A stretch of 35,619 nucleotides of DNA from Candidatus Thorarchaeota archaeon (GTDB lineage Archaea; Asgardarchaeota; Thorarchaeia; Thorarchaeales; Thorarchaeaceae), in assembly GCA_029858305.1 (NCBI GenBank), contig JAOUFI010000020.1, positions 1 through 35,619 on the forward strand, written 5' to 3'. The notes beneath the pieces are model-generated. The model saw only the letters and a program-made list of their open reading frames with translations, had not been told where the DNA came from and did not search any database. Each line of letters opens with the position of its first letter. The first letter of the stretch is position 1. The position numbers and the translations under genes were made by a program. Positions 8,632 through 25,813 of the stretch are shown here, piece after piece.

Positions 8632-11600
8632 TTACTTCTTCCTGATAAGGAACAGGATGAGGATGATGACTACACCTACGCCAATACCGCCAACCAAGCC
8701 GATCAGTAATGGATCGATTCCACCAGTTGTTATGGTCGTTGTGGTTGTGGTTGTAGTTGTCGTAGTGACCGGTGGAGTTACCTGGACGTCTCCTGCAGCA
8801 AAGGATGCTGAGAATCCATCAGCAAAGTCACCAGGCCAGTAGCTGGCTGGTGGATTGCCTACTCCACACAGGTATATTTCGTACAGAGTGCCGTTATCAT
8901 AGGTATCCTCGAGCACAAAAGTGTCGAAGTCCAAGCTGTAGGCACGAATTCTGACGATATAGTCGGTGTCAAGCCAACCAACCGCATTCCATTGATAGGA
9001 AGTGGCAGTCGTGTTCTGCTGAAGCAGCATGTACGAATCGCCACCATCATTGCTCAGCCAGACTGAGTAATAGGTAGTATCATCGACATTCCTGTCAGTG
9101 CTAGACCAGGTGATGTTGAAGTGGTTTGTGCTAGTCTCTACAGGCGCATTCACTGTGACATGAGGTGTGAAGTAGTTTCCAATGAAGACATTGGAGATAC
9201 CACCTGTGTAATCAAAGTTGCTTCCCGTATCACTGGATACAAGGATACCAAACGTCTGATTCTGTAGTAGGTAGTAGGTATCGATCATGAAGGTCCTTGT
9301 GTGGTAGGCCCTTGCCGGCTCGAGACCAACTCTAGTATCTACAGTGAGCCAGTACGTAGAAGAGTCGCCTGCATAGTCCATAATTCCAACGACGATGGAA
9401 CCATCCCTGTCAGCTACGAATGAACCAGCTTCTGGATGAGCTCCACTTGTCATGGATGGAGCAACTGCAATCTTATTACCATAGGTACGTTCTGCCATTG
9501 GTACTGTGGACCACCACATCATGACATCACAATCGCTACCGTCAAAGTCGACAGTAACTCGAACGACATCATCTGTCACGATTCCCGCCACGGTCTCCCA
9601 TGCGAAATCATCGGGGTTGATTGGCGAGCCACTAAATGCTGCATCTGGATCACTAGCAGCGACTGTTGGACCAGTACGCTCGACAAGATTTCCGTAGAGG
9701 ATCTTCATCTCCATTGAAGTGATACCAAACTCTGGAATCAGTGGATTGACACCATTGTCCCAAGTGGCGTTCATATAGACGTGGTCACCTACAGCGCTTC
9801 CGCCATCAGTAATCACAGTCTGAGCTGGAACGTCCCTTGCATTCCATCGGAATGTTAGAGTTGGCTCATCAATGGTCTTCAGACCTATGACTTTGATTGT
9901 GAAGGGTTCAGGAATGGTTGATCCATTCAATGCGTTCATAGTGGTGTAGATCATCCATAGACCTGTCCAACCATCAATCTGAGCCATCGCTAGAGCAGTC
10001 GTGTCAGTGTCCTTAACACTGTCAGCTGATGTCGCCCAAGCCCAACCTGTCATGTCGACAATATCGACATCCATGTCAGTGCCTGGATTAGTCCATTCGA
10101 GTCGTGCACATAGATAGTTCACGTCAGAGTCAGTCACGTTAACGATTATGGCAGTATGATCGCTTGAACCGGGAGCATAGGAGGCATCCCATCCAGCGGT
10201 CAGTGTGCCTGGCTCATAGGGTGTGACTTCATCTCCAACATTAGAAACAGGAGTGAAGACAGTGCCGTTTGCAGAATAGGTTGACAAGACGTTGTAGGTG
10301 TATGGCATCTTCCATTCATAGGTACCATTGTCTGCAATGATGAATCCTTGATGGATACCATAGTCAGTACCAGCGCCCACTGTCAGTGTGACGTTTGTAC
10401 CACCTATAGTGCTGTCAATCGCAGCTGCGATGTTAGCATCGTCAGTCAATGACCAGGTCCGTACTGTGACTTGTAGAACGTTGCCAGTGCCGCCATTCAC
10501 GAGGATGATTGGTGCATTCGGGAAGAGAGAGCCTATACCATCTGGTGTAGATAGGTCTATCTTTATCACGTTCGCTGAGTAGGCACCATATGCAATGCGT
10601 GTAAGCTCATTGCCGTATGTACCATTATAGTAGTCAGGAACTCCATTTGGTGGATCAGTATCGGTCCAGTCAAAGACGAAGGCTGACAGAGGTATTCCTC
10701 CACCAGTAACATCATCAAATGCATCGATGTCTCCAGCGATGGAGATGGTTGCATAGGTCGCTGATTGGAAGTTACCATAATTGCCTCCTAGTCCCGTTGC
10801 AAGATCTATCCAGGTGCCACGGTTGGCTTTAGTCGAGGGGTCATAGTACGTGCCCGTAGTGAATCCGAATGTTGTCGATGTGTCTTCAACATAGTGCCTA
10901 TCACTCCACGTAAGGTCTCCAAATGCCCAATTTCCATCGCTGTTAATGGACATTGTGACTGAGTCACCCTCATTGACTAGGCCAAAGAACAAGTTGTAGT
11001 CTGCAAAGTATGGAGCATGTCCAAGAGCAATTGCGCTGTTGTTGATCAGGGCGTCACGCGTGTACGCATACATGTCGTATGCCCAACCTTCATCAACTGC
11101 AGTTGCCCAGTTGTAGCTTGAGTCCATTGTCGAGAACACATATCCAACGTTGTTCTCAATGTAGTTTACTGCTGCAAAGGCATCAACACGACCAGCACCT
11201 TGGGTCAGTCCGTCTAGACCTAAGTCCACTGCGGTGCTCATCATGATAGTCTTGACTTCATCAGGAGCCAGAGTTGGATCTGCGTCCAACATCAGTGCGG
11301 CAACACCAGCCACAAGTGGACAAGCCATTGATGTGCCGGCATAGACAGCATAGTTGTTGCGAGTTCCGAACAGCTTACCATAGTCAGGTACAAGTCCGTA
11401 GTTGTTCCGACCTGGAGCTAGGATATCTGGCTTGGAGTATCCAAGTGTCATTGGGCCTCTAGATGAGAAGTCAGCAATCTGATCAAATCCTTGGTTGTCA
11501 CCATAGGCTGACTCAAAGGTGTGATAGCTTGTTGTTGCGCCAACACTAATGATCTGAGGAACAGTTGGTGGACCACCAGTTGCATAACCAGGGCCGGAGT

Positions 11601-13464
11601 TACCAGCTGAGAAGACCTGGATTGTGCCTGGATATTGAGGACCAAAGAATCCAGGAGTTGCCAGTGCGGCATAGACCAGCGAATAGCGACCCCAGAGCTC
11701 ATAGTACTGTGGAGCAACCCAGCCCCAAGAGTTACTTGATATGTCCATCTGATGGACGCTCTCGTTGTTCCAGCTCCACCAGCCGCCAGAATAATCGAAT
11801 CCAGCAGCATAGAGGAATGAGTTGAACTCAGACACCATGCCAACTGTCATTACACCAGCGATAGTACTGTCAGGTGCAACACCCGGAAGCGCAACACTCG
11901 AACCACCAGGACCTACTGGATATGTAAGGACACCACGACCAGCAATCTGACCAGATACGAAGGTACCGTGTGAGTCACCGTCATACATGATGCCCATACC
12001 TCTACCGTCGCCAGTACGAATACCATTGATCATTCCAAATCCGAAGATATTCATCTCCCAGCAATGAGCAAGGGTACCAAGGCTAAAGCGGAGTCCGTCA
12101 GGATAGTCCTCATACATAATAAGATGCTCAGGATTACCGTCCTTGGTGTAGTACTTACCAGCTGCAAGGTCATCGACAAAGCTCCAATCACCAAGACCCT
12201 CATAGTAGTCACGGTTGGCTGTAACGTTGAAGTCAATACCTGTGTATCTGGAAAGGCGAATAGCGTCCATCCAGAATTCAGTGTGAGCACGAGTTGTGTT
12301 CCAGTCAACGATGGCTATAGTTTTGTTGATAGTGATAATAGGAGCAAATACCTTGGTGTACGGATCATTGCGCTGCTGGAATGCATAACCAGCAGTCAGA
12401 TAGGTCACACCTTGAGAGGTAGCACCACCCATACACTTTGAAGGTTCAGGAATCTCAAGATCCTGCCTAATGACATTGTAGTAGAACTCAGTCAAGTTAG
12501 CTACATTGGGATATGGATGAGCAGTTCCCCACCAAGCATCTAGGTAACCGTCGAACCACCAGTCCAAGTTCGCAAGACCACCCTGGTTGTTGACACGAGG
12601 ACCATCACCATTTACGACATTAGAATAAAATGGATTATCCACCATGCTTGACCAGTTGATGTAGTACTTGCCAGCCTTTTCGTAGCTGAGTAGGTTCCAC
12701 GAGGAGCCTTCATACCAGGCTGTGATGTTCGCTACATTTGTCACATTGACTCTATAGAGTGTGTTTACATAGCCCCAGCCAGTTGCGTCATAGCTTGTCG
12801 GTAGACCATCGGAACCAATGTCGATGGCACCAAAGAGATCTGGATGGCTGAAGTCAGTACCAGTATCAATGGTAGCGACTTTAACACCCGTTCCGTCATA
12901 ACTTAAGGTTTCCCAGACGTCATCAGCACCAATCCAGGGGACAGTTGCCCATGCTTCTGGTTCTTCTATAATTGGTAGGTTGTCAGTAACTGTATTAAAA
13001 TCGTCGTTCGCGCCCTTATAGAGGCGATCGGCGGAAGCAGTCACTACACCCTCATAGTTCTCAAGTGCGACAAGATTCTCGGTTCCTTTTACAAATGCAC
13101 TAGCAATAATTGCAACTCCAAAATCAGCCTTCCAGTTGAATTGGATAATATTCTCTAGACCATCAAGATTTGCGTTCTTTTCTAGAGTGATGAGGATTCC
13201 GACTGCACCGTCATTATTTTTGACGGCATCGGATGCAATTACGCCTGTGTCCCGATAGCTTGCGAGCACAGAGTCGAGAGGTCCATCTACGTCCCTTTCA
13301 ACCAAGTAACGTTGTAAATCCATCATTACTTGTTCAGGAGTAGCGACCTGTGGTGTAGCAACCTGCGGATTTAGGAGTGTTGTCGGTGTAAATGGCACCA
13401 TTACCATACTCATGGTCATGATGACGATACACAACAACACCATATTCTTCTTCAGGTTGTTCAT
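8632..13464 (-). CDS. Large membrane-anchored S8 subtilase (pyrolysin/STABLE-like) with C-terminal beta-rich domains
   Basis: Signal peptide; triad ATIDTG / DSHGTF / AGTSMACP; oxyanion SAGNSG; Thr-rich linker; C-terminal TM helix ending in RKK. GAGGAG lies upstream. Confidence 0.93.
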   Translation of the reverse strand: MNNLKKNMVLLCIVIMTMSMVMVPFTPTTLLNPQVATPQVATPEQVMMDLQRYLVERDVDGPLDSVLASYRDTGVIASDAVKNNDGAVGILITLEKNANLDGLENIIQFNWKADFGVAIIASAFVKGTENLVALENYEGVVTASADRLYKGANDDFNTVTDNLPIIEEPEAWATVPWIGADDVWETLSYDGTGVKVATIDTGTDFSHPDLFGAIDIGSDGLPTSYDATGWGYVNTLYRVNVTNVANITAWYEGSSWNLLSYEKAGKYYINWSSMVDNPFYSNVVNGDGPRVNNQGGLANLDWWFDGYLDAWWGTAHPYPNVANLTEFYYNVIRQDLEIPEPSKCMGGATSQGVTYLTAGYAFQQRNDPYTKVFAPIITINKTIAIVDWNTTRAHTEFWMDAIRLSRYTGIDFNVTANRDYYEGLGDWSFVDDLAAGKYYTKDGNPEHLIMYEDYPDGLRFSLGTLAHCWEMNIFGFGMINGIRTGDGRGMGIMYDGDSHGTFVSGQIAGRGVLTYPVGPGGSSVALPGVAPDSTIAGVMTVGMVSEFNSFLYAAGFDYSGGWWSWNNESVHQMDISSNSWGWVAPQYYELWGRYSLVYAALATPGFFGPQYPGTIQVFSAGNSGPGYATGGPPTVPQIISVGATTSYHTFESAYGDNQGFDQIADFSSRGPMTLGYSKPDILAPGRNNYGLVPDYGKLFGTRNNYAVYAGTSMACPLVAGVAALMLDADPTLAPDEVKTIMMSTAVDLGLDGLTQGAGRVDAFAAVNYIENNVGYVFSTMDSSYNWATAVDEGWAYDMYAYTRDALINNSAIALGHAPYFADYNLFFGLVNEGDSVTMSINSDGNWAFGDLTWSDRHYVEDTSTTFGFTTGTYYDPSTKANRGTWIDLATGLGGNYGNFQSATYATISIAGDIDAFDDVTGGGIPLSAFVFDWTDTDPPNGVPDYYNGTYGNELTRIAYGAYSANVIKIDLSTPDGIGSLFPNAPIILVNGGTGNVLQVTVRTWSLTDDANIAAAIDSTIGGTNVTLTVGAGTDYGIHQGFIIADNGTYEWKMPYTYNVLSTYSANGTVFTPVSNVGDEVTPYEPGTLTAGWDASYAPGSSDHTAIIVNVTDSDVNYLCARLEWTNPGTDMDVDIVDMTGWAWATSADSVKDTDTTALAMAQIDGWTGLWMIYTTMNALNGSTIPEPFTIKVIGLKTIDEPTLTFRWNARDVPAQTVITDGGSAVGDHVYMNATWDNGVNPLIPEFGITSMEMKILYGNLVERTGPTVAASDPDAAFSGSPINPDDFAWETVAGIVTDDVVRVTVDFDGSDCDVMMWWSTVPMAERTYGNKIAVAPSMTSGAHPEAGSFVADRDGSIVVGIMDYAGDSSTYWLTVDTRVGLEPARAYHTRTFMIDTYYLLQNQTFGILVSSDTGSNFDYTGGISNVFIGNYFTPHVTVNAPVETSTNHFNITWSSTDRNVDDTTYYSVWLSNDGGDSYMLLQQNTTATSYQWNAVGWLDTDYIVRIRAYSLDFDTFVLEDTYDNGTLYEIYLCGVGNPPASYWPGDFADGFSASFAAGDVQVTPPVTTTTTTTTTTTITTGGIDPLLIGLVGGIGVGVVIILILFLIRKK
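8725..8766 (-). repeat. Low-complexity ACN run encoding a poly-Thr linker
   Basis: TTTTTTTTTTTITT immediately before the membrane anchor. Confidence 0.8.
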
Positions 13465-13905: not shown

Positions 13906-14994
13906 CTAACGAATCATTTTCTTGATTGCATCAACAATCTCATTAGTCATAATGATTGCACCAATCATCTCAATCCTTGGTTCATCAGCTCGCACATCTC
14001 CCACCTCGCGTGCGACTCTTGTCATGGATCTACCAAGACCTTCGATTAGAGAGATAAGTGCCTGCTTTGCAGAATCTTCTTTCTTACAAGACTGAACCTG
14101 CGAAATCAATTCAACAAGATCAGAGATGACACTGTCTGAGACCTCAGAAGCAGTTTCTGCGCGACGAATCAAATCAGCCCACCGATTTTGACTCTCATGT
14201 AGACTCTTTTCGAGTTCCAATAACTTTCCAGTATCCTTCGGTACCACAGGAGCAGATTTGGTGTTTTCAAGGATGAGTCTGAGATCAGCTATTTCTGATT
14301 GTAGAGCTTCAATTGAAAGATCCTTCTCCTGGAGTTGAGCACGAACCTTATTCTCGATGTCTGAAGGCCCACCTTTTGCTTTTAGTTGCTCCTCCATCAA
14401 GGATATTGAATCTTCTCGCTCACCAATCTCGGCCTTGATAGTTTCAAGCTCACCCTCAAGATTAGCCAAGGAGCTTTCCTTCTCCGTGACGAATTCGTTA
14501 AGTCGCTTGTTATCAACTTCCAAGCGCTGGATTGTGTCCTTGGCAAGTTTGGCCTCGTCTTTGGCATTCTTGAGTTCTGTTCTTAGAGCAACAAGATCAG
14601 GTTCTGGGGCTGCAACAATAAAGTGAGCTACAACAGCAAAGAATAGGATACAACCAAATATGTATGCCAAAGAGGTAATAACTGAGCCAAACACCAGATC
14701 TACTAGTAATTGTAAGCCGAGAGAGTAGGTGTTCCATGAACCAAAGCCCCATGGAAATGCACTTGAAGCAGCAAAGAGAATACCAATCAGTACAGCACAC
14801 AGACTGATAATACCAAAGAATACCATGAGGTTGCGTTTGAAGTCTTCTCGTGGAAGATGTCTTTGATAGACCAGAAGGATAATTCCCAGTGCAGCAAGGG
14901 GCAATGCAAAGATGGAGATTGCCAGAATGTCATCCATTGGTGTACCAAGAGTGATTAGTGCTTGAAAACCTACTTGAGTGCCTAAATCAGTCAA
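13906..14994 (-). CDS. Hypothetical membrane protein with N-terminal TM bundle and long coiled coil
   Basis: Three to four hydrophobic helices, then a heptad-rich E/K/L region and a helical C-terminus. The likely start is TTG 14994 after GGAGG; the track starts at 15126. Confidence 0.82.
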   Translation of the reverse strand: MTDLGTQVGFQALITLGTPMDDILAISIFALPLAALGIILLVYQRHLPREDFKRNLMVFFGIISLCAVLIGILFAASSAFPWGFGSWNTYSLGLQLLVDLVFGSVITSLAYIFGCILFFAVVAHFIVAAPEPDLVALRTELKNAKDEAKLAKDTIQRLEVDNKRLNEFVTEKESSLANLEGELETIKAEIGEREDSISLMEEQLKAKGGPSDIENKVRAQLQEKDLSIEALQSEIADLRLILENTKSAPVVPKDTGKLLELEKSLHESQNRWADLIRRAETASEVSDSVISDLVELISQVQSCKKEDSAKQALISLIEGLGRSMTRVAREVGDVRADEPRIEMIGAIIMTNEIVDAIKKMIR

Positions 14995-15132
14995 CTGAAA
15001 GCCTCCCAACTCATATCGATGGTTAGACATTTTGAAGGATAAAACTATTCTGGCAAAACTATGAAAACGCTCAAAAAGTAATGTAGGATGGTCTGTCCCC
15101 AAAAAACAGGGGACAAGATTTTCCAAAATGCT

Positions 15133-15438
15133 TTATTCTCTCCAGAGCCGGACCTTCTCAGCCTCGTGATCTTCAATCGCCATATCAAGACTCTTGACCA
15201 GTCTCACTGCCTCATCGACTGATAGGAGGAAGGAACCCTTGATATCCCTATCTTCACCGATGGAGAGTCTTACCTTCCCATCATTAATCCATCCTTCTGT
15301 GGTCTTTTCAGGCAGAGCGAGCTGAATCTCAAGCCACGTTCTTCTTGTCTGACCAGTCCCGCGATCATCAAAGAAATGCTTTAGCTGAAGTCGGCGCTCG
15401 TATGTGTATGTTTTACTTGCCAATATCATGCACTCCAA
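15133..15438 (-). CDS. Hypothetical protein (~96-101 aa), possible PC4/Whirly-like beta-sheet plus helix fold
   Basis: Protein-like composition with alternating beta strands followed by an amphipathic helix (LSVDEAVRLVKSL). The fold call is inference. Confidence 0.72.
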   Translation of the reverse strand: MECMILASKTYTYERRLQLKHFFDDRGTGQTRRTWLEIQLALPEKTTEGWINDGKVRLSIGEDRDIKGSFLLSVDEAVRLVKSLDMAIEDHEAEKVRLWRE

Positions 15439-15605: not shown

Positions 15606-18488
15606 ATGCCATCGATTCGCAGAACTACTATCATCCTTGTAGTGCTCTTGACACTCGTCTTCTCACCAATGCCGGTATGGGGCTCTACTACCTCAAACTC
15701 GGCTGGGAGAGTCCTTATGAGTACGAGTCTAGTGACAGCAATTGCCGCTTCTCAGCCAGATGATATTATTGCAGTAGTAGCACAATATCCAGAGGGAAGT
15801 GCTCCGGAAGCTATGACCTCATCACTCCTCTCGCTGGGCATTAATAGTATTCAGGTCAGGCATGCGTTCCATATCATGCCAATGATTTCATTCTATGTGA
15901 AGAGCAGCGACATCAGTCGGCTAGCTCAGGATTCGATGATGCTTCATTTAATGTTAGATGTAAATAGAGAGATCGCCTCGGACACTATTTCCAATCAAGC
16001 AATAATTGCGTCAAATGGTAATGGGTATACGCATTTCACCACACTCATGGATGCCGATGGTCTGTGGGATGAAGGATACAATGGGAGCGGCATTGTCGTC
16101 TCAGTAATAGACAGCGGAGTTGATAGTACTCATCCAGACATAGAGAACCAACTGATCGGATTTAGGGATTTCATTAATGGTAGAGATGATATGACACCTG
16201 CAAATGGTATCGATGCCTACGATGATAATGGCCATGGCACTGCATGTGTTTGGAATATCGCTGGAGATGGTACTGCAAGTGGAGGAAGTCTAACAGGAAT
16301 TGCTCCAGGAGCTAGTATTCTTGCAATCAAGGTACTTGATAATGAAGGATCCGGAGATGACTCAGTAATCGCTCAGGGAATCGAATTTGCCGTTGATAAT
16401 AATGTGGATGTTATCTCTCTGAGCTTGGGTGGAGAGTGGACAGATGATACTTTTGTTATTGAACCATCGGTGGTCGCATGTCGAGCCGCAGTGAATGCAG
16501 GTGTTTCTGTTGTCATAGCTGCGGGCAACTCAGGACCTCAAGCATTCTCAATCAATTCCCCAGGAATCACTGAGGAAGCCATCACGGTGGGGGCATCATC
16601 CGGCGCAGAGGGAGTAATTGCGTTTAGTAGTGTAGGTCCAGTACTAAGAACAACATCACAACCAAAGGGCTACTCTGCTAAGCCAGATGTAGTTGCGCCA
16701 GGATATAATATCGTATCAGGAAGGGGCGAAGACTCGATTACACAAGAATATCCAATTTATAACCAAACACAATTTGGGGATGCGTATACTTTTTGGTCAG
16801 GAACATCTGCGTCGGCACCAATGGTTGCAGGAGCAGTCGCTCTTCTTGCGCAAAAGCACTCTTCTCTAGCACCTGAAGAAGCAAAGACTGCTTTGATGTT
16901 CTCCTCCACTGACCTTGATCTCGATCCAATGGTCCAAGGTTGGGGTCTTGTAAATATTACACGTGCATCTCAAACACTTATTCAGACAGGCAGTGATATT
17001 ACAATCATGACTCCAAAACGGTTCCCCACATTTCCTTGGAGTTCGAAAGTTTTGATAGTTGGAGATGAAAGACCACCTCAGAATATCACTGTAATCTCCT
17101 CCGTCCAATTAGGAACAGCAATCATCACAATAAATGGGAATGCAAGTCAGTACGTACAAACTAATGTTGACCAAATCACGGTAGTCGATGGCTATTCTCA
17201 TTTCAGTATCTATCTAGATATCCCAGATGACTTACCCTTGACTTATGCTGGAAGATATACAGGTACATTGAACTTGACCGTAGGATCTACAACTATCGCG
17301 TCAATCAAAATCGAGTACACAATCACGCTATTTGGAGGTCGATTGATGGTCGACATGGAGCACCACTCAGCAGATGACCCTGATGATCCTTCATATTACG
17401 GATATTTCACAGAATATCTGCGAGAACGAGGCGTCCTGCTATCAGAATTTGGAAGTCCTGATGATCTTGTCAGGAGCTATATCGATCTTGGTTCATTATC
17501 AGCATCAGATATCTTCATGATCATGGATACTGAAACAACATATTCGGAAGGAGAAATCTCTGCACTTCACGAATTCGTTCAAAATGGAGGTACGCTAATC
17601 GTACTTTCAGAAAACTGGGATAATGCAGCACAAGTAGCTTCCTTTGGTATTGATGCATATAATCTCATACTCGAGCCCTTTGGAATTCAGTGCGAACGGA
17701 ATGGCATAGGTGATGGCCCTGGAAATTATGGACTTATATATGATGCAAGTGTTGGAAGCGTTGTTGAGAATACTTCTCTCATGGAAGGAGTGACAAGCCT
17801 ATACATTGTTCAAGGAAGTACTCTTCATGTTGATTCATCAATATCAAACGCACAGGGATTATTCTGGGTAGACTCGGCGAAAACACATGCAATAGTAGCT
17901 ACGGCAGAGTATGGAAATGGCAAGGTGTTTGTCATCTCAGATGGATCTACTCTCTATGATGATATTCTATTTGATGCAATTAGCCGTGAAGCAGATAATC
18001 TTCGGCTTCTCAAGAATCTAGCAGATGCAATTCTTCCCGAAGCACCAAGAATCTATGATGTAGAGATGAATTTGGATGAAATTGGTGACCCTGCGAACAT
18101 AACTGCATATGTCTTTGATGCTGATTTGGAAAGCGTGTCTATAAACATCATTGGACCTGGGAACATAAATCTCACTGGACCAATAACTGAAAGCCTAGGT
18201 TACAAATTCTCATCGAACTTCATTTTCAGTAGCGGAGGATTTTATTCAATCCGTGTTGAAGCATCAGATGCAATGGGGAATATCAGAATTTTCCAGAAGA
18301 CAATCCTTATTCCTGTTGATGCCGCTGACGACCTTTTCATTCAGGCAGTCATCTATACATTACTAGGTGTTGTGGGAATCGGGTTGACTTATGTTGGATG
18401 GCTCAAATATGGTGCAGGACGCAAGTTGAAACCCAAGATAGAACCGAAGGAAGAAGAGTGGGAACTACCCCCTCCATCTATTGAATAG
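15606..18488 (+). CDS. Membrane-anchored S8 subtilase with site-1-protease-like (SKI-1/MBTPS1-like) C-terminal domains
   Basis: Signal peptide from MPSIRR (ATG 15606; track starts at 15345); triad VIDSG / NGHGT / [14 protein letters not shown]; GATase-like (GIFT/DUF4350-type) domain; C-terminal TM helix and charged tail. Confidence 0.92.
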   Translation: [960 protein letters not shown]

Positions 18489-19758
18489 GACCAAATGAGT
18501 TTTCCAGATACTCAAGGAGTCTTTCATGACGTGGCTTCAGGAGTGGCTGATCCTTGAGTATTACTCCTGATTCTACACGTTCTAATATCTCATAACCTAA
18601 TCGAGCTCCCTGTCTTGAGGCTATCACTTGTCCACCAATCAGACGACCATTGGAGTCTAAAACAAGTGCGGTCTTACTGAACTCAATTGGATCTTCAACG
18701 TACTGAACGACTGTCTTTACACCCAAATCATTGGCTGTAGTAGAGGAGTGACCAATGCATACAACATCAATCCCAAAGAGTCTATCATATTGAAGACGTT
18801 TTGACGTATCAGCATAGATTTTCTTACCGCCCACTGCAGCCACGCCAGCTTGTCTTCCACACCTAGCCGCCATACTTCCGATTGGAAGGAGAATATTCTT
18901 TCCAGTGTATGTATCTTTCATCTCAATACAGTCTCCCACTGCGAAGATATCGTGTTCGGAGGTCTGCATCTGTTCGTTTACAATGATGCCGCCAAGATCG
19001 CCAATACGCACACCCAGAGATTGAGCAAGAGTTGTGTTGGGCTTAACACCGGTCATGAACAAGACTGCATCTGCATCTATTATTTCATCCCCTATGGAAA
19101 CACCGACTACATGTTGGTCGCCAACGATTTCAGTTGGAGATGACCCTAGATGAAGCTTGAAACTCCTTGGCAATCTGGAGCGAAGCTCTGCACTCATAGG
19201 TGGTTCTAGTTGTCTGCGCATGAGGCGTGAACGCACAACCATATGCGTTTCTTTTCCAAGATTTATCATGCGTTCTGCTGTTTCAAGTCCACTAAATCCA
19301 GCCCCAATAATCACAATCGTACTCATACCAGAGAGCTGCTTGCCAATCGCCCTTGTATCAGCCAAAGTCTGAATCGTGAAAACGCCCTGAAGGGCAATTC
19401 CTGGAATGTTGGGAACATTCGGAATACCACCAGTCGCAAGGATAAGCCGGTCGAATTTTAATACCGATGCGCCGTTTCCATTTACTATCTGAAGAGTCTT
19501 AGTAACGGGATCTCCAGCTTCAACTCGAGTTCCAGAGAGGACTTCAATTCGCTTCTCAGCCAGCGCTGCGACCGACCAGTCATTAATTGATAATTTCTCT
19601 GTGTCAGGAAATTCTAAAGCTAATGATGCACCTGGTTTCTTATGAGCCTCAAGAGTTTCGTCTGTAAGTATCTTTATGTCAGATTCTGAGCTGAACATCC
19701 TCGCTGCAACCGCTGCAGCGGCGCCTCCTGGACCATAACCCACTATTACTATCTTCAT
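18478..19758 (-). CDS. FAD-dependent pyridine nucleotide-disulfide oxidoreductase family protein (NADH oxidase/rubredoxin reductase-like)
   Basis: IVIVGYGPGG, LILATGG, IIGAGFSGLE, TGVKPN and IFAVGDC motifs. Confidence 0.9.
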   Translation of the reverse strand: MKIVIVGYGPGGAAAAVAARMFSSESDIKILTDETLEAHKKPGASLALEFPDTEKLSINDWSVAALAEKRIEVLSGTRVEAGDPVTKTLQIVNGNGASVLKFDRLILATGGIPNVPNIPGIALQGVFTIQTLADTRAIGKQLSGMSTIVIIGAGFSGLETAERMINLGKETHMVVRSRLMRRQLEPPMSAELRSRLPRSFKLHLGSSPTEIVGDQHVVGVSIGDEIIDADAVLFMTGVKPNTTLAQSLGVRIGDLGGIIVNEQMQTSEHDIFAVGDCIEMKDTYTGKNILLPIGSMAARCGRQAGVAAVGGKKIYADTSKRLQYDRLFGIDVVCIGHSSTTANDLGVKTVVQYVEDPIEFSKTALVLDSNGRLIGGQVIASRQGARLGYEILERVESGVILKDQPLLKPRHERLLEYLENSFGPIQ

Positions 19759-22700
19759 TACTCGATACCTCTTCTCTCACTTTGTTTTCTGATGATCAGA
19801 ACAGCTACAAAGGCAACAATGACTATTCCAACACCGATAATGAGGATGGTATTATCCTCTATTATTGTAAGAGACGCAAAATGCAATTCAGTTGTTTTTG
19901 AAGTGGAATCTTTCGCTATGGCGTAAACATCATAATCACCCAGAGGAAATCCATCTGGAGATATGAGGAATTCATAAAATCCGCCTGCACCAAACACTGT
20001 AAAATTAAACCATAAACCAGTTGAATGCTTGAATCCAACCAAAACCTCAGACGCAAGCATAAATCCTTCCAATGTGAAGTCACCCGATATCTTCTCATCA
20101 TATAACAAGCCAACATGAATTATCGTGCTATCTAAAGAGGCACTTGAAAATCTCATAAAACCACCTGCTTGGCCCGAGAGTAAAACGAGCGGTGAGAAAA
20201 GTAATTCTGAGTCAGAGGTGAGGTTAAACAGTAGGCTATTGATGTAGAGTGTGAGGAGCTTGTCAGAGGTCACAGTTAATTCAATTGTATCCTGTCCGGT
20301 GACAATCCATGATTGAAGAATATTAATTGAACCATCTACAACGCTTGCCCCAATCGTTCGTTCATCTATTGATGAATCATGATCCTCAGTTCTTAACTCG
20401 ACATGTAGAGAAGTGTCAATTGGCATCATTGCTAGTTCAATAATTAAAGGCCGCCACCGATCTACGATGTCTTCTGGATTCGTCTGGTCCAGATATTCAT
20501 TTGTTGAATTGTGAGTTGCACATATGATACTTCCACGCCCTACGTCTTCCAGACCTTCAATCTTTAAGACGGTCATTGGACCATCTTGCCACCATGATCC
20601 AATTAGTGTGGATGGATCATATGAAGATCCAGTCCACTTATAGATGGATAGAATATTACCTGTCAGGTTAAGCAATACATCAGCACCATTGATGCCTGTT
20701 GAGAGATTTGTGTCGGAGTTCCATTCGATACTCAGCATGTCAGTTCCTGTGAAATCGCTCACAGAAACGGTAGTTACAGCAAATGCCATCGTACCAACCT
20801 GCTGCATTATTCTTAGTTTGAGTATGTCCAAATCGCCTGAGAGACCTGGATTCACGGGATCGGTCATGAAATCATCAACAAATGCCCAATCTGATTGAGT
20901 GGAGTTCCTTCTGAGGGTTTCATTTAGAACGTGCATGACAGAGAGAACTGCATCAGCATAACCATGGCCATAATCATTCGAGGATATTGGATAATGAGAA
21001 GACCATCCTCCAGCTCCATCCATAAGAGCGGTGTAGTCTTTCCAGGCGTTAGATGTACCATCAGCTTGGCGAATTAGTGCAAGTGTTCCAGCTACATGAG
21101 GAGAAGCCATACTGGTACCATCCTTGGATATCCAGAGCTCGGAAGACGAAGTGTAGTATGGTGGAGATAAATCGTTCCTCGCCGCATATATCGATACACC
21201 TGGAGCTGAAATATCTGGTTTGGGCGAACCATCAATTCTGGGACCTTTGCTGGAGCTAGTGGCGATCGCCAATACATCGTTGTGTGATGCTACTGCAATG
21301 GCAAAGTCTGCAGTTGCAGGACCGCTAACTGTTCGCAAATCTTCAATATGATCACTAAAGGTCATATACGCCGTACTCCAATCACCATCCCATGCATAAC
21401 CATCCACATAGACAGTATTTCCCTCAGGATTCTCCATTCGAATTGTCCAGTGACCATCAAGCCAATCGTGATCTTCTGTTGATACTTGAATGATGATGTT
21501 ATTCATCCCACGGAGGCTAATCTCGCAGAATACATAGGCAGACAGGTTCTCCGTATTAAGAAAGAACGATTGTCCAGCTATATCTGAAAACTTACCAAGA
21601 TCAATAGGGTCAGTTGAAGGACGACTCAGTATCACATGCTCATCACGGTCTTCAGATTGCCATAAAAGGCTCAAGTAGGAGTAATCTGGTTCATTGCTAA
21701 TATCAAGACCGACCAAGTTATACGAGCCGGATGACACGCTGAATCGTGCATGTTTATCGCGCCCACCCAAATTTCCAGCAGCTGCCGTCGATAATACTCC
21801 ATGAGAGAGGAACGCCTCGGTTACAGCGAGGTCTTCAAGATCAGTGCCGTCAAGAAATCCTAGATATGATGAGAACGACATATTGATGATGTCTGCTCCG
21901 TTTTCAATAGCAAAACTGATTCCATCAACAATCTCCGCGGACTGAAGTGGACTGCGAATAATAATCAAATCAGCTCCAGGAGCAACACCCACATATGAAG
22001 TGAAACCTGGTTGACCACCAGCGATTGTTGATGAAACATGCGTGCCATGCCCCCCGTTATTAGTATCCCCAACTGTAGGCGCCATGGTCAAATTTACTCC
22101 TCTAACATAAACGAGTGAGTCAAACTGATCATAAAAGATAGCTATCTTGGAAATATTTAGAATGACAGCCTTCTCGGAATCCAAGTCTATTGAATTATCA
22201 TCGTTCGCATCAATTCCACCAATCCATCTATCTCCAGCTGCATAGTCAAAACCAAGTGATCCGTCTAAGTTGATGTACATATAATCAGTCGCATAAGCTA
22301 TCGTAGGTCCACTTTGCCCACCGACAGTCCTTATTGGACCTTCATCAGTATCAGGTGCTGAGTTGTTATTAAGGTCGACAAAATAATCAGGTCCAGATTT
22401 TAGAAAATTGAAATCACCAGGATATTGTCGCCAGAAGGAAGGATGAGTCCACATCGCGCCTGTATCAATGACAGCTACAGTCACTCCAGAACCATTGATG
22501 GTTTGTCCATCAACATGTAGATTGTTCCATACTTCATTCGCACGTATCGTTGGTACTGAGGACATGAGTGAGGGAACATATTGTTTTGTGCCGGAAGTCG
22601 CTCTCACAAGCCCAAGAGATGATAATCGCTCAAACACATCAGGTGAACTCACTATCGCAGAATAGATACGCCCCACATTGATTATCGCAGCTCCACGTCT

Positions 22701-22943
22701 GGCAAACTTGAGTCCAATAGCTTCAGCTTGGATGATATCTGCCATCGATAGGGGATTTTTGAATTCGAGGATTGCACTAGTACCTCTGTCTTGTGCATTC
22801 GCAATCTCCATCTGAAGTCTTGCTTCAATCAGTGGTTGATGAGTAAAAGCGTTTGACTGACTGTTAGATAACGTAATGGTATGTGCGGGTAGGGGTATAA
22901 TTAAGGCGATTAATAGGACAAGGATTAGGTATCTTTGAAGCAT
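19758..22943 (-). CDS. Membrane-anchored S8 subtilase with two internal insertions
   Basis: Signal peptide; triad AVIDTG / GHGTHV / DGTSMASP; AAGN; C-terminal TM helix. ATG 22943 or TTG 22988 (track). Confidence 0.92.
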   Translation of the reverse strand: MLQRYLILVLLIALIIPLPAHTITLSNSQSNAFTHQPLIEARLQMEIANAQDRGTSAILEFKNPLSMADIIQAEAIGLKFARRGAAIINVGRIYSAIVSSPDVFERLSSLGLVRATSGTKQYVPSLMSSVPTIRANEVWNNLHVDGQTINGSGVTVAVIDTGAMWTHPSFWRQYPGDFNFLKSGPDYFVDLNNNSAPDTDEGPIRTVGGQSGPTIAYATDYMYINLDGSLGFDYAAGDRWIGGIDANDDNSIDLDSEKAVILNISKIAIFYDQFDSLVYVRGVNLTMAPTVGDTNNGGHGTHVSSTIAGGQPGFTSYVGVAPGADLIIIRSPLQSAEIVDGISFAIENGADIINMSFSSYLGFLDGTDLEDLAVTEAFLSHGVLSTAAAGNLGGRDKHARFSVSSGSYNLVGLDISNEPDYSYLSLLWQSEDRDEHVILSRPSTDPIDLGKFSDIAGQSFFLNTENLSAYVFCEISLRGMNNIIIQVSTEDHDWLDGHWTIRMENPEGNTVYVDGYAWDGDWSTAYMTFSDHIEDLRTVSGPATADFAIAVASHNDVLAIATSSSKGPRIDGSPKPDISAPGVSIYAARNDLSPPYYTSSSELWISKDGTSMASPHVAGTLALIRQADGTSNAWKDYTALMDGAGGWSSHYPISSNDYGHGYADAVLSVMHVLNETLRRNSTQSDWAFVDDFMTDPVNPGLSGDLDILKLRIMQQVGTMAFAVTTVSVSDFTGTDMLSIEWNSDTNLSTGINGADVLLNLTGNILSIYKWTGSSYDPSTLIGSWWQDGPMTVLKIEGLEDVGRGSIICATHNSTNEYLDQTNPEDIVDRWRPLIIELAMMPIDTSLHVELRTEDHDSSIDERTIGASVVDGSINILQSWIVTGQDTIELTVTSDKLLTLYINSLLFNLTSDSELLFSPLVLLSGQAGGFMRFSSASLDSTIIHVGLLYDEKISGDFTLEGFMLASEVLVGFKHSTGLWFNFTVFGAGGFYEFLISPDGFPLGDYDVYAIAKDSTSKTTELHFASLTIIEDNTILIIGVGIVIVAFVAVLIIRKQSERRGIE

Positions 22944-23053
22944 CGACGTCCCTCTAGGTTGGTTTCTTATCCTGCTCCTTTTCTTCAACTGATATGCTTT
23001 TGCCCTTGGTACCTATATGAGCTGATTGTGGGAATGTGACCCTCGAATTCTGA

Positions 23054-24415
23054 TTATTCTTTGGCAGTGATGTCAATATTCTTTGCCACAAATTCAGGAC
23101 CAATCCAGGAGAATAGTTTGATAGGTTTTTTGGCTATCTCAACGATGTTGTTGAGTACCTCATATATATTTCCGGATACCATGAGACCATCAACAGCTCC
23201 AATAATTTTGCCATTCTCTATAAGAAAAGCAGGATTTCCAACGATACTAAAGTCACCAGATTCAGGATTTGAACTATGAGCACCCTGAACGTTGAGAATA
23301 TAGTAGCCATGATCAATCTCGGTAATTGCTTCTTCGATTTCACGAGCTCCTGAATCAATGACTAGTGTTGTTGGACTTATATCTACGAGACCTTGACGCA
23401 TATTTCGCCTTGCATTTCCGGTGCTTTTCACGCCCATCTTATTTGCCCAGTAAGTGTCCCAAAGAAAAGAACGGAGAATCCCTTTCTCAATTATAGATGT
23501 CTTTTGCCGAGGAACACCCTCATCATCAGCTTTTGATGTGGCTGCACCACCAGGAATAATACCATTATCAACTAGTGTGAGTAGTTCTGATGAAATTGTA
23601 TCACCAATCTTGTCAGCTATTTTTGATTTACCACGGGCCACATTATCACCACGAATACTTGGTATCAGTGTGTACCCAAAGAGTGGAGCATAGGCTTGAG
23701 GGTGGAAAATAACTGTGTGTTTTCCAGACCTACCATTTACTTTCGTCTTACAAATTCGAACCCAGTCAGCAACTCTTTTGACCATACCCTCCATATCTAG
23801 GGAGAGATCTCTTCTCACGTCGTATTCAACAACGAGTGGTGTCGCACCTGACTCGGTTTGAGCCATTGCGGCTTCCACCAAGTATGACGTAGTTCCTCTC
23901 TCTGAGCATGAAACACCATTACTGTTCGTATACGCACTTGTGTGTGAAGAGGTACCGGAACCCCCACGTATGAGCACGAGACCGGGTTCACTCGTGGCAG
24001 CTTTAGAAATGAGCTTACCCGTTAGATCTACCACCTCGCTTGGATTTGTTTTGGCAATACCATCATCCCAGAGACCTTCGATTGTAGTATACGCTTGAGG
24101 TTGAGGTAATGAAATCCAATCCGCATCCTCGGTCGTAACCTTTGCGGCAGATATTGCTAAACCCACTGCATCACGGACACTATCCTTTGTAGGAATGTTT
24201 GTGAAAGCAGAACCCATTCGTTTACCAATATACAGACGAATAGCAATTTCAGTGCCAATCTTTTGATTTACACTACTAATCTCTGAAAGCTCGATATCTG
24301 TCTCTAGTTCATTTTGTGATTGTGCGAGAGCTTCAACAGCAGTAGCTCCTGCCTTTAGTCCAGTTGATATGATGTAGCTGCAAAGTCCTAGAAGTTCTTT
24401 TTCTTTAACCATCAT
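23054..24415 (-). CDS. pmbA: TldE/PmbA family protein (non-catalytic subunit)
   Basis: DDEGVP, STGNARR and NPESGDFS motifs; no HExxxH; downstream of tldD. Confidence 0.9.
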   Translation of the reverse strand: MMVKEKELLGLCSYIISTGLKAGATAVEALAQSQNELETDIELSEISSVNQKIGTEIAIRLYIGKRMGSAFTNIPTKDSVRDAVGLAISAAKVTTEDADWISLPQPQAYTTIEGLWDDGIAKTNPSEVVDLTGKLISKAATSEPGLVLIRGGSGTSSHTSAYTNSNGVSCSERGTTSYLVEAAMAQTESGATPLVVEYDVRRDLSLDMEGMVKRVADWVRICKTKVNGRSGKHTVIFHPQAYAPLFGYTLIPSIRGDNVARGKSKIADKIGDTISSELLTLVDNGIIPGGAATSKADDEGVPRQKTSIIEKGILRSFLWDTYWANKMGVKSTGNARRNMRQGLVDISPTTLVIDSGAREIEEAITEIDHGYYILNVQGAHSSNPESGDFSIVGNPAFLIENGKIIGAVDGLMVSGNIYEVLNNIVEIAKKPIKLFSWIGPEFVAKNIDITAKE

Positions 24416-24424
24416 TATTTCCTC

Positions 24425-25813
24425 CTAGCTCTTACCTCCAAAAGTAATTCCCCCTGCGCCAAATCGGATATCAGGGCCGCCTGATGAAACAAACGCCTCT
24501 TGTCCTTTGCCACATCTCCCAACATCATAGGGGAATGGCTCTTTTGACACAGCTTCTATCTTGTATAGAGAGTCTGTGGCAATTCCAGATATTGAAAGAT
24601 CTGTCACAGGTCTTCCAAGCTCTCCATTAACTATCTCATATGCTTCCTGAATTCCCACCTGAAAACTTGCATTGGTTTGAGCCTGACCGCCTCTGAAGTC
24701 AGTGCAGTAATATCCAAACTTGATACCCTCAAAGACTTCTTCTCTTGAGTGTTCGCCAAGTTCGAAGATCGTGCTACGCATCCTAATAATCGGCGGAAAC
24801 AGGTAACTCTCAGCTCGAGCATTGCCTGTAGTTCGATGATTGATTTTTGCGGCATATTCTCGATTTGTTAACAGTTCAGTAAGAACAGAGTCTTTGATTA
24901 TTTCTACACGGCTAGCAGGAACTCCCTCATCATCATATTTGGATACTCCTACCCTACCCATGTCGATTCCATTATCTGTCATACTAACACCTTCAGAAGC
25001 CACAACCTGACCTAGCTTGCCCGCAAACGAGCTATTCATCGTGATATCAGCCTCTGCGAGATGTCCTAGAGCCTCGTGGGCAAGAGTGCCTATTACACGC
25101 GGGCCACATACACATGGAAATACTCCGCTCTTTGCTGCAACGCCATCCAACTGTTGTTTCAATCGTTTTGCGACAGCAGTACCAATTACCTCAGGAGATG
25201 CTATCCTCTCAAAGAATTCCCAACCTTCATCTGTGGTAGCATCTTCATAGCGTGCAGCACTCAGACGAATTCCATCCTTGCCACTCGCCCACGGAAGCGT
25301 CCAGACTAAGAGAGTTGGAGACTGAATCTTTGCACCCTCAGAGGTAACGAGATACTTTGTCCCTGACGAAGTTCTTACCTTGATTGTGACGGCAGTGACT
25401 CGTGGATCGTAATCTCGAATTGTCTTTGTCATCTGATTCATGTACTCAATTTTCTCTTCGATGGGAACATGGCGAGGGTCTCGCTTTGGTTTGTTTTTAA
25501 TCACATCTTCATACGCTCGGACTTCAGCCAACTTAATGGGTTCTTTTCGTGATCGAGCAGCTGCCTTTGCCATTGCGACTGCATCAGAAACGCCTTTGTC
25601 AAGTAATTCTAAATTTCCAGTAGTCACAAAACCCCAGGCTCCATCTGCCAGTGCCCTTATGGCAACTCCTCGCTCAAGACGTTGAGTTAGTGCGGCAACG
25701 CGAGAGTCTTCCATTTGAATATACTCAACAAAACCGGATTCTCCACGAATCTCAATATAAGTGGCACCCAAGTTGCGTCCTTTATCTATAGCGTGCTCCA
25801 GGATATCAAGCAT
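24425..25813 (-). CDS. tldD: TldD family metalloprotease (catalytic subunit)
   Basis: HEALGHLAEAD zinc motif, YDDEGV, TGNARA, PIIRM and CGKGQ. Confidence 0.93.
   Translation of the reverse strand: MLDILEHAIDKGRNLGATYIEIRGESGFVEYIQMEDSRVAALTQRLERGVAIRALADGAWGFVTTGNLELLDKGVSDAVAMAKAAARSRKEPIKLAEVRAYEDVIKNKPKRDPRHVPIEEKIEYMNQMTKTIRDYDPRVTAVTIKVRTSSGTKYLVTSEGAKIQSPTLLVWTLPWASGKDGIRLSAARYEDATTDEGWEFFERIASPEVIGTAVAKRLKQQLDGVAAKSGVFPCVCGPRVIGTLAHEALGHLAEADITMNSSFAGKLGQVVASEGVSMTDNGIDMGRVGVSKYDDEGVPASRVEIIKDSVLTELLTNREYAAKINHRTTGNARAESYLFPPIIRMRSTIFELGEHSREEVFEGIKFGYYCTDFRGGQAQTNASFQVGIQEAYEIVNGELGRPVTDLSISGIATDSLYKIEAVSKEPFPYDVGRCGKGQEAFVSSGGPDIRFGAGGITFGGKS

Follow-up and report, generated by a model that had tools for sequence, protein, structure and literature searches.

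A Thorarchaeota membrane subtilase with the S8, beta-sandwich and GIFT core of eukaryotic site-1 protease

Introduction

Site-1 protease (S1P, also known as SKI-1 or MBTPS1, and as SBT6.1 or SBT7 in plants) controls sterol, endoplasmic reticulum-stress and lysosome-biogenesis signalling. Here, we analyzed a stretch of 35,619 nucleotides from a Candidatus Thorarchaeota archaeon (contig JAOUFI010000020.1 of assembly GCA_029858305.1; hereafter "the window"), in which a gene, P0001, encodes a subtilase of 960 residues. The protein has the build of S1P, that is, an S8 catalytic domain, a beta-sandwich like the P-like domain of S1P, a GIFT domain and a transmembrane helix in one chain, with one additional Ig domain preceding the helix. 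Its S8/beta-sandwich/GIFT core probably derives from the same fused ancestor as S1P. P0001 is a cousin of S1P, neither its direct ancestor nor a protein to be filed as S1P, and three of the features tested as marks of S1P membership are missing from it. As for its role, processing of surface proteins rather than signalling is likely. We also lean, somewhat, towards the joint proposal that the core came from the fused ancestor of S1P and that the enzyme, one of a conserved cluster of proteases, trims or matures surface proteins instead of starting a signalling cascade.

A core shared with site-1 protease

According to the available part of PMC11231238, human S1P consists of an S8 domain (187–478), a P-like sandwich (479–616) and a GIFT domain (617–998). 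A profile built from 45 archaeal relatives aligns with the human protein continuously, from profile positions 143–763 to chain positions 198–862, at 313 bits (8uwc/8uw8), whereas the alignment of the same profile with Vpr ends after the beta-sandwich. Five segments downstream of the catalytic domain, which an initial annotation of the window had matched by eye to human S1P, do fall in register, both in this alignment and when P0001 is compared with eukaryotic S1Ps. Furthermore, when the post-catalytic regions of 33 archaeal proteins were compared, profile against profile, with 15 eukaryotic S1Ps, taken from metagenome contigs and headed by one judged from its matches to be plant SBT6.1, the two sets were connected (99%, E 4.5e-18). 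Smaller inputs give less: a seven-sequence profile reaches S1P at E 0.009 only, and a single-sequence search of the Protein Data Bank (PDB) with the C-terminal half returns nothing significant, the best match being IFT52 (E 0.21).

The predicted structure points in the same direction. The AlphaFold and Foldseek comparison with MBTPS1 that the initial annotation had proposed was run on the full model and on the non-catalytic half, and S1P came first both times, with E 1.2e-38 and E 2.2e-12, respectively, the latter nearly level with OST48/Wbp1. The first match in the ESM Atlas is an MBTPS1 cluster at 0.87, under the Atlas's own bar of 0.9, and is taken as a lead only. By VIA-align, the whole model superposes on S1P with Z 37.1 over 585 residues (root-mean-square deviation (rmsd) 8.5; identity in the structural alignment about 23%), and its C-terminal half with Z 18.1 over 289 residues (rmsd 7.2), spanning the beta-sandwich and GIFT. 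Among the structures listed, Tk-SP and Vpr have higher Z, but S1P is the sole entry covering residues 141–813.

The GIFT domain carries a further signal. P0001 keeps the equivalents of D626, H629, D697 and E699 of the S1P GIFT domain, and the D697/E699 pair (D-x-E) is at least 90% conserved in the 15 eukaryotic S1Ps. The D-x-E motif is found in 39 of 63 GIFT domains linked to S8 vs. 6 of 127 other GIFT domains, counts that are weakened by the fact that both sets were collected with a profile from the P0001 family and contain kin that are not independent. Likewise, the S1P GIFT profile gives a median of 14.8 for S8-linked domains vs. 10.6 for the others (p 0.006). The enrichment of D-x-E in S8-linked GIFT domains favors one ancestral fusion. 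The GIFT domain was reportedly described originally by Beatson and Ponting in 2004.

Gene and domain architecture

P0001 is a single intact open reading frame (ORF) on the forward strand, from ATG at 15606 to the stop at 18488. An ORF finder opens the frame earlier, at TTG 15345; the ATG is preferred because it fits both a signal peptide and the length of about 955–985 residues of most full-length homologs. The features of the gene are as follows.

15606..18488, + strand: whole gene P0001, type I membrane subtilase of 960 residues (ORF, Pfam, AlphaFold2 model)
15606..15683, + strand: predicted signal peptide, residues 1–26 (hydrophobic segment 8–26; helix 6–19 in the model)
15711..15977, + strand: prodomain, residues ~36–124 (model fold; structural match to ProN-Tk-SP, 3afg, from residue 36)
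15957..15977, + strand: predicted propeptide junction D118...R121-E-I123-A124 (P7...P4–P1), with the putative cut after A124 (Tk-SP register)
16023..16988, + strand: S8 catalytic domain, residues ~140–461 (Pfam, alignment of 40 relatives, model)
16110, 16233, 16527 and 16806, + strand: D169, H210, oxyanion N308 and S401 of the S8 domain (alignment of 40 relatives)
16359..16361, + strand: D252, in the column of the S1P S4-pocket residue T286 (alignment; D in 39/40, E in 1/40)
16989..17330, + strand: beta-sandwich at the position of the S1P P-like domain, residues ~462–575 (model, structural matches)
17331..18029, + strand: GIFT domain (GATase-like fold), residues ~576–808, with D583, H586, D641-x-E643 and E650 (profile and fold matches)
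18042..18314, + strand: extra Ig-like beta-sandwich, residues ~813–903 (model; outside the S1P-aligned region, the S1P structural match stopping at 813)
18330..18410, + strand: transmembrane helix, residues ~909–935 (model and hydrophobic segment)
18411..18485, + strand: predicted short cytoplasmic tail, in which a basic stretch precedes an acidic one and the Pro-rich end is conserved (P957 and I959 unchanged in 40/40 relatives)

ORF, Pfam and the AlphaFold2 model together confirm the type I membrane architecture read from the sequence at the outset (signal peptide, prodomain, S8, Ig-like, GATase-like, transmembrane helix and tail). The model has a first beta-sandwich at 466–574 and a second at 815–902, which that reading had not set apart. 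Pfam S8 (PF00082) covers residues 160–447 (189 bits, E 1.4e-55), and weak matches below the cut-off are to DUF4350, IFT52_GIFT and MBTPS1_4th. The model (predicted local distance difference test, pLDDT, 81.9; predicted template modelling score, pTM, 0.71) delimits the prodomain at 40–117, S8 at 144–461, GIFT at 578–808 and the helix at 909–935; hydrophobic segments lie at 8–26, at 910–928 and at 289–307, the last buried in the S8 core. The four catalytic residues are unchanged in all of 40 aligned relatives, which were chosen from 102 full-length homologs at under 75% identity. Named homologs are mostly from Thorarchaeota, with 49–97% identity over residues 450–960, and the non-catalytic domains are highly conserved across the family.

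Several known proteins resemble P0001 in part. S1P itself (PDB 8UW8, 8UWC, 9CSD; PMC11231238, PMC12067269) has in common with it the order of signal peptide, prodomain, S8, beta-sandwich, GIFT, transmembrane helix and tail. For the prodomain and S8, the top match in sequence is Tk-SP of Thermococcus kodakarensis (PDB 3AFG, 9UES; E 3.9e-53; Z 40–42), but that match lacks GIFT and a transmembrane helix, and the P4 residue at the Tk-SP propeptide junction is hydrophobic. Large bacterial subtilases such as Vpr of Bacillus (PDB 8JMW) likewise have a comparable beta-sandwich after S8; in Vpr, however, the S8 domain is interrupted by an insertion, and the match again lacks GIFT and a transmembrane helix. 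IFT52 (5FMS, 5FMR) and OST48/Wbp1 (6S7O, 6C26) have the GIFT fold, the IFT52 match confirming that of P0001, and OST48 matches GIFT, Ig and transmembrane helix over model residues 127–490 of the C-terminal half; however, both are devoid of a protease domain, and IFT52 has no D-x-E. The GIFT-Ig-transmembrane half (window 17331–18410) matches OST48/Wbp1 end to end, with Z 18.8 and rmsd 15.7.

One fusion or independent assembly

A number of comparisons weigh against a common origin of the fused core. The S1P profile gives the S8 domain of P0001 117 bits, compared with 123–129 for subtilisin BPN' and up to 186 for S8 domains of Halobacteriota, and the fetched ones among the latter have no GIFT match. 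The archaeal Ig+GIFT profile scores IFT52 at 88 bits (E 4.8e-24 for the family profile) and S1P at 49, and IFT52 is also the best fold match of the C-terminal half (Z 22.4, rmsd 2.5, 206 residues). When taken alone, the beta-sandwich is nonsignificant vs. S1P in profile-profile comparison (E 0.24). Moreover, the rigid-body rmsd of the model to S1P is 7–10 Å, so that agreement in the overall packing of domains is uncertain.

Most of these points would suit an independent assembly, in which archaeal subtilases and S1P separately joined an S8 plus beta-sandwich unit, such as that of Vpr, to a GIFT domain; such a history concerns ancestry, not function. It is favored by the single domains, each of which lies at least as near to generic relatives as to S1P, by the many stand-alone GIFT domains in the genome of P0001, by the GIFT domains found at other distances in some archaeal S8 proteins, and by the best-scoring constraint on S8 trees, which pairs S1P with a GIFT-less enzyme (see below). 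On the other hand, the order and spacing of domains are identical and give one continuous alignment, D-x-E is enriched in S8-linked GIFT domains while IFT52 has other residues there, and the fusion is uncommon: among the matches listed for 151 Halobacteriota, 151 Nanoarchaeota-phylum and 121 Verrucomicrobiota genomes, with at most 5–6 candidates scored per genome, no full S8-Ig-GIFT match occurs. We regard independent assembly as unlikely, with a weight that is still appreciable. The initial annotation's term "prokaryotic relative of S1P" holds for the S8/beta-sandwich/GIFT core, by alignment, fold and D-x-E, but not for the single domains, which are no nearer to S1P than to generic relatives.

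Searches for a closer counterpart of S1P in prokaryotes gave little. Against the MBTPS1 models of Pfam, P0001 scores 17 bits with PF23090 (cut-off 27), and PF23001 is not listed for it; none of 301 Asgard genomes has a PF23094 match above the cut-off. PF23090 is above the cut-off in 12 of the 301, not via P0001, and the matches are mostly short (about 55–170 of 275 positions). A eukaryotic GIFT profile applied to 20 further Asgard loci, fetched to find a closer paralog, gave none above 25 bits and none clearly closer. Two S1P signature patterns searched over 185,579 prokaryote genomes hit 52 stretches, four of them related (S8 only), with no full-length S1P-like gene. The highest scores on the S1P profile among prokaryote S8 domains tested, 186 and 183 bits, belong to two Halobacteriota surface proteases, L258 and L259 (genomes G401 and G440), composed of S8, a beta-helix, CARDB and PGF-CTERM.

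Phylogeny

In a FastTree tree of 143 S8 domains, S1P is nested in a GIFT-bearing archaeal group with a support of 85 and joins P0297/L053. Quick trees under mixture models, made with 88 rows (55 of the 143 dropped) and 78 rows (10 more dropped), break up the GIFT-bearing group, which no longer forms a single clade; this tells against the common fusion. Their backbone is open and S1P sits on a long stem, joining P0297/L215 in the 88-row tree and falling in a polytomy in the 78-row tree. In trees of S8, Ig and GIFT together (49 and 44 rows), P0001 is placed in its own clade (100), while S1P joins a lone long branch, L053 (84 and 94). Among 7,999 candidates of 1404–4468 residues, no relative of L053 outside its own cluster was found at E<=1e-40, and the join with S1P may therefore be long-branch attraction. 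When L053 is removed (3 of 44 rows dropped), S1P attaches beside a Bathyarchaeia row with weak support. No grouping of S1P with a Heimdall/Hod branch was evident in these trees, as far as Asgard loci labelled by family code rather than by name can show. L053 itself (L053:3098-10756; G029:C2) is an Asgard S8-Ig-GIFT protein of 2,553 residues with Val after the catalytic Ser, joining S1P at values of 84, 94 and 96 in the Shimodaira-Hasegawa-like approximate likelihood-ratio test (SH-aLRT).

Constrained placements were compared by the approximately unbiased (AU) test, with values that come from quick LG+G4 searches and are noisy. A group made up of S1P, P0001 and P0125 and nothing else is rejected (p-AU 3.5e-5; 12 of 44 rows dropped), whereas S1P with a wider five-row clade containing P0001 is not (p-AU 0.31, or 0.11 for S8 alone). 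For S8 alone (20 more rows dropped), none of six constrained placements is rejected, and the one with the best likelihood pairs S1P with an enzyme of Halobacteriota that has no GIFT domain, again a point against the shared core. The constraint uniting S1P with all Asgard/TACK rows is 19.7 log units better than the free search in one S8 run and the worst of the set in another. As for the S8 phylogeny proposed in the initial annotation, S1P nests among GIFT-bearing archaeal proteins under FastTree, narrow sisterhood with P0001 is rejected, and the AU test separates no S8 placement from the others.

The possibility that the Thorarchaeota lineage of P0001 is the direct source, i.e., the ortholog, of eukaryotic S1P is accordingly very remote. 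P0001 is the best match to the S1P profile of the two candidates scored in its own genome, and the wider five-row clade is compatible with the data, but the narrow pairing is rejected, the S1P profile gives higher scores, up to 165 bits, to the S8 domains of other Asgard paralogs, and PF23090 is passed by the 12 Asgard genomes mentioned above and not by P0001. Judged from these trees, the P0001 lineage is not the direct source of S1P; as for descent of S1P from the wider archaeal family, they neither show nor exclude it.

Specificity residues and the propeptide junction

Nine residues are given for the specificity of S1P in the accessible parts of PMC12067269 and PMC11231238: Q282, T286, S307, I308, D312, D315, N338, D339 and N348, of which T286 is named as an S4 residue (PMC12067269). 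P0001 replaces six of them, Q282, T286, I308, D312, D339 and N348 becoming G, D, L, W, S and S, respectively; S307 and N338 are kept, and D315 is ambiguous, lying in a loop with an insertion. G248, L274 and S309 of P0001 are subtilisin-like. All five eukaryotic rows carry the full nine-residue set, but not one of 39 archaeal rows does. P0001 also differs from S1P in a GIFT insertion of about 20 residues, ending in W-x-G-D-H, which is a gap in P0001, and in the extra Ig domain before the transmembrane helix. Both enzymes lack Met after the catalytic Ser, a feature that the initial annotation had pointed out. The absence is real (A in 36 of 40 relatives) but not diagnostic: paralogs of the same architecture have M, F, V, L, T or A at this position, and the feature was discarded as a marker of S1P.

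An R-x-aliphatic sequence at the predicted end of the prodomain is common to P0001 and S1P. In Tk-SP, the mature chain begins seven residues past a conserved propeptide Asp, and this register, transferred to P0001, makes D118 P7, R121 P4, I123 P2 and A124 P1. In the model, REIA (121–124) is followed by a low-confidence, disordered linker (125–139). The REIA site, regarded as weak when it was first pointed out, therefore falls at the predicted register of self-cleavage and opposite a conserved acidic S4 residue, which makes it stronger than had been judged. At the junction, the 40 relatives have D or N at 118 in all cases, R at 121 in 24 and I, L or V at 123 in 30. Among 91 archaeal rows, P4 is basic in 3 of the 19 whose S4 residue is acidic and in 0 of the other 72 (Fisher p 0.008). 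Some counts speak against an Arg preference: full R-x-[LIV] is kept in only 16 of 40 close relatives, and 16 of the 19 acidic-S4 rows have a non-basic P4, the linker alignment being loose. On balance, a P4-Arg cleavage bias in P0001 is conceivable, at a little short of an even chance as far as these alignments go. Most other paralogs have a hydrophobic P4, which suggests that such a bias would have arisen in parallel with that of S1P.

Gene neighbourhood and possible function

The gene order around P0001 was compared over 19.5-kb stretches in 17 loci, namely the window and 16 of the same family picked for long contigs, and is kept in the 16 further loci. The neighbours are as follows.

8632..13464, - strand: second S8 subtilase, 1610 residues (Pfam; 14/17 loci)
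13906..15030, - strand: upstream protein with three transmembrane helices and a coiled coil, of no known family (17/17 loci; in the Atlas, only its own Thorarchaeota cluster)
15133..15429, - strand: divergent 98-residue protein of no known family (13/17 loci; no Pfam match and no significant PDB match)
18478..19758, - strand: convergent pyridine nucleotide-disulphide oxidoreductase (Pfam; 17/17 loci)
19758..22988, - strand: third S8 subtilase, 1076 residues (Pfam; 17/17 loci)
23054..25813, - strand: PmbA/TldD metallopeptidase pair (Pfam; 10/17 loci within the 19.5-kb stretches)

The 3′ ends of the P0001 and oxidoreductase genes share 11 bases (window 18478–18488), and the 1076- and 1610-residue subtilases both have large insertions inside S8, their matches being split in pieces. 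The beta-strand-then-helix pattern of the 98-residue protein may resemble that of PC4-like DNA binders. Among the conserved neighbours in the 17 loci, two of which are of no known family, no transcription factor was identified.

Domain order, the intact catalytic triad, the end-to-end alignment of the core with S1P, the range of the family and its synteny are observed; from them a plausible course of action can be drawn. The signal peptide would export the zymogen, and the C-terminal helix would anchor the protease at the outer face of the membrane. The prodomain would aid folding and then be removed by self-cleavage behind A124, R121 fitting into an S4 pocket to which D252 contributes. According to the available part of PMC11231238, GIFT of S1P packs onto oxyanion-hole loops; by analogy, GIFT of P0001 may steady and gate the active site. 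Extracellular or surface proteins would then be cut, preferably where P4 is Arg and P2 is aliphatic, a bias achieved through residues other than those of S1P.

Two other functions deserve weighing against such surface-protein processing. P0001 could be a broad-specificity feeding protease that digests outside protein for uptake, the Arg at its junction being incidental. Its best matches in sequence and Z-score are Tk-SP, Vpr and subtilisins, its G248, L274 and S309 are of the subtilisin type, the gene sits amid other peptidases, and STABLE, a surface-bound archaeal subtilase, serves nutrition as described in the accessible part of PMC9549277. Against a feeding role stand the S4 column, acidic in 40 of 40 relatives, together with Arg at P4 in 24 of 40 where other paralogs are mostly hydrophobic, and the high conservation of the non-catalytic domains; we hold this role to be improbable but worth keeping in mind.

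Alternatively, P0001 could make the first cut of regulated intramembrane proteolysis, clipping a tethered regulator whose cytoplasmic part is then freed by an M50 protease, as the initial annotation had proposed. Its S1P-like build and possible P4-Arg bias would fit, as would the cytoplasmic zinc-ribbon tails on many paralogs. The search for M50 site-2 proteases suggested there did find two genes, on contigs other than that of P0001; the result is uninformative, because M50 is also present in 14 of 14 control genomes, and M50 presence was dismissed as evidence for two-step proteolysis. The same genome encodes a surface protein of 3,371 residues with a short cytoplasmic tail, a candidate substrate in principle, but R-x-[LIV] is absent from the 60 residues outside its transmembrane helix, and genome-wide the motif shows no enrichment beside membrane helices (8 of 43 juxtamembrane vs. 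20 of 43 control windows). In addition, D312, D339 and N348 of the S1P acidic pocket are replaced, and no transcription factor was recognized among the conserved neighbours, which are other proteases and enzymes besides the two proteins of no known family. Two-step signalling is thus unsupported for P0001, and a first-cut role appears quite improbable.

Range and paralogs

A profile of the C-terminal region matches 197 of 301 Asgard-phylum genomes at E<=1e-5, the weaker matches including stand-alone GIFT proteins; within the taxonomic family of the window, 68 of 76 genomes match, 64 of them at E<1e-50. Forty distant loci were fetched, and 32 were used as continuous S8-Ig-GIFT proteins. By cluster name, the relatives belong to Odin-, Njord-, Hod-, Ran-, Asgard- and Promethearchaeia and also to Bathyarchaeia, so that the layout is not restricted to Asgard. 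Two Nanoarchaeota matches extend to the first GIFT strand. P0001 is one of many paralogous lineages.

Some of these lineages depart from the layout of P0001. A family of 807 residues (L033:1534-3954, L034–L036, code f16; P0141) has GIFT near the C-terminus and no evident extra Ig domain, and mostly has Asp after the oxyanion Asn, as S1P does; it is nearest to S1P in layout, yet is not grouped with it in trees. Many paralogs (P0142, P0143, P0147, P0150, P0156, P0159, P0163, P0175, P0180, P0245) end in a C-terminal zinc ribbon that is likely cytoplasmic; a possible reading is that these tails form an inside-facing signalling or binding module, which is absent from P0001. In another group (L048, L052, L059, L063; P0152, P0172, P0187, P0214), Ig and GIFT are shifted by about 400 residues and no standard catalytic-Ser motif was found; these are possibly altered or inactive proteases. 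The genome of P0001 also holds more S8 or Ig+GIFT paralogs (G000:C158:31486-33462(-), C123:1-996(-), C164:5759-6940(-), C14:1728-4484(+)), some of such genes being interrupted by contig ends or stops, and several GIFT proteins with no protease domain, among them those on G000 C34, C148 and C127.

Implications

S1P is placed among the pyrolysins in the available part of PMC9549277, and a published phylogeny, as far as the accessible part of PMC6713707 goes, proposes a eukaryotic origin for SBT7/S1P. A description of the P0001 family was not found in literature, preprints included, on S1P/MBTPS1 in Asgard or other archaea, archaeal GIFT and Thorarchaeota subtilisins; most subscription papers and supplements were outside this scope, and an entry in a table is possible. 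An archaeal family with the three-domain core of S1P is a concrete candidate source of S1P. It also offers simple, expressible proteins for studying what GIFT contributes to a protease in the absence of SPRING, and by what route P4-Arg specificity came about. The P0001 gene alone is of moderate value, being a cousin without demonstrated signalling.

A bolder and rather doubtful proposal is that S8/beta-sandwich/GIFT membrane proteases of Asgard archaea already matured surface proteins at Arg-x-aliphatic sites and that eukaryotic S1P was inherited from them. If so, a proprotein convertase of the secretory pathway would be older than eukaryotes. The enzyme from Thorarchaeota could then serve as a present-day model of how such proteases worked before SPRING, and members with zinc-ribbon tails might already signal.

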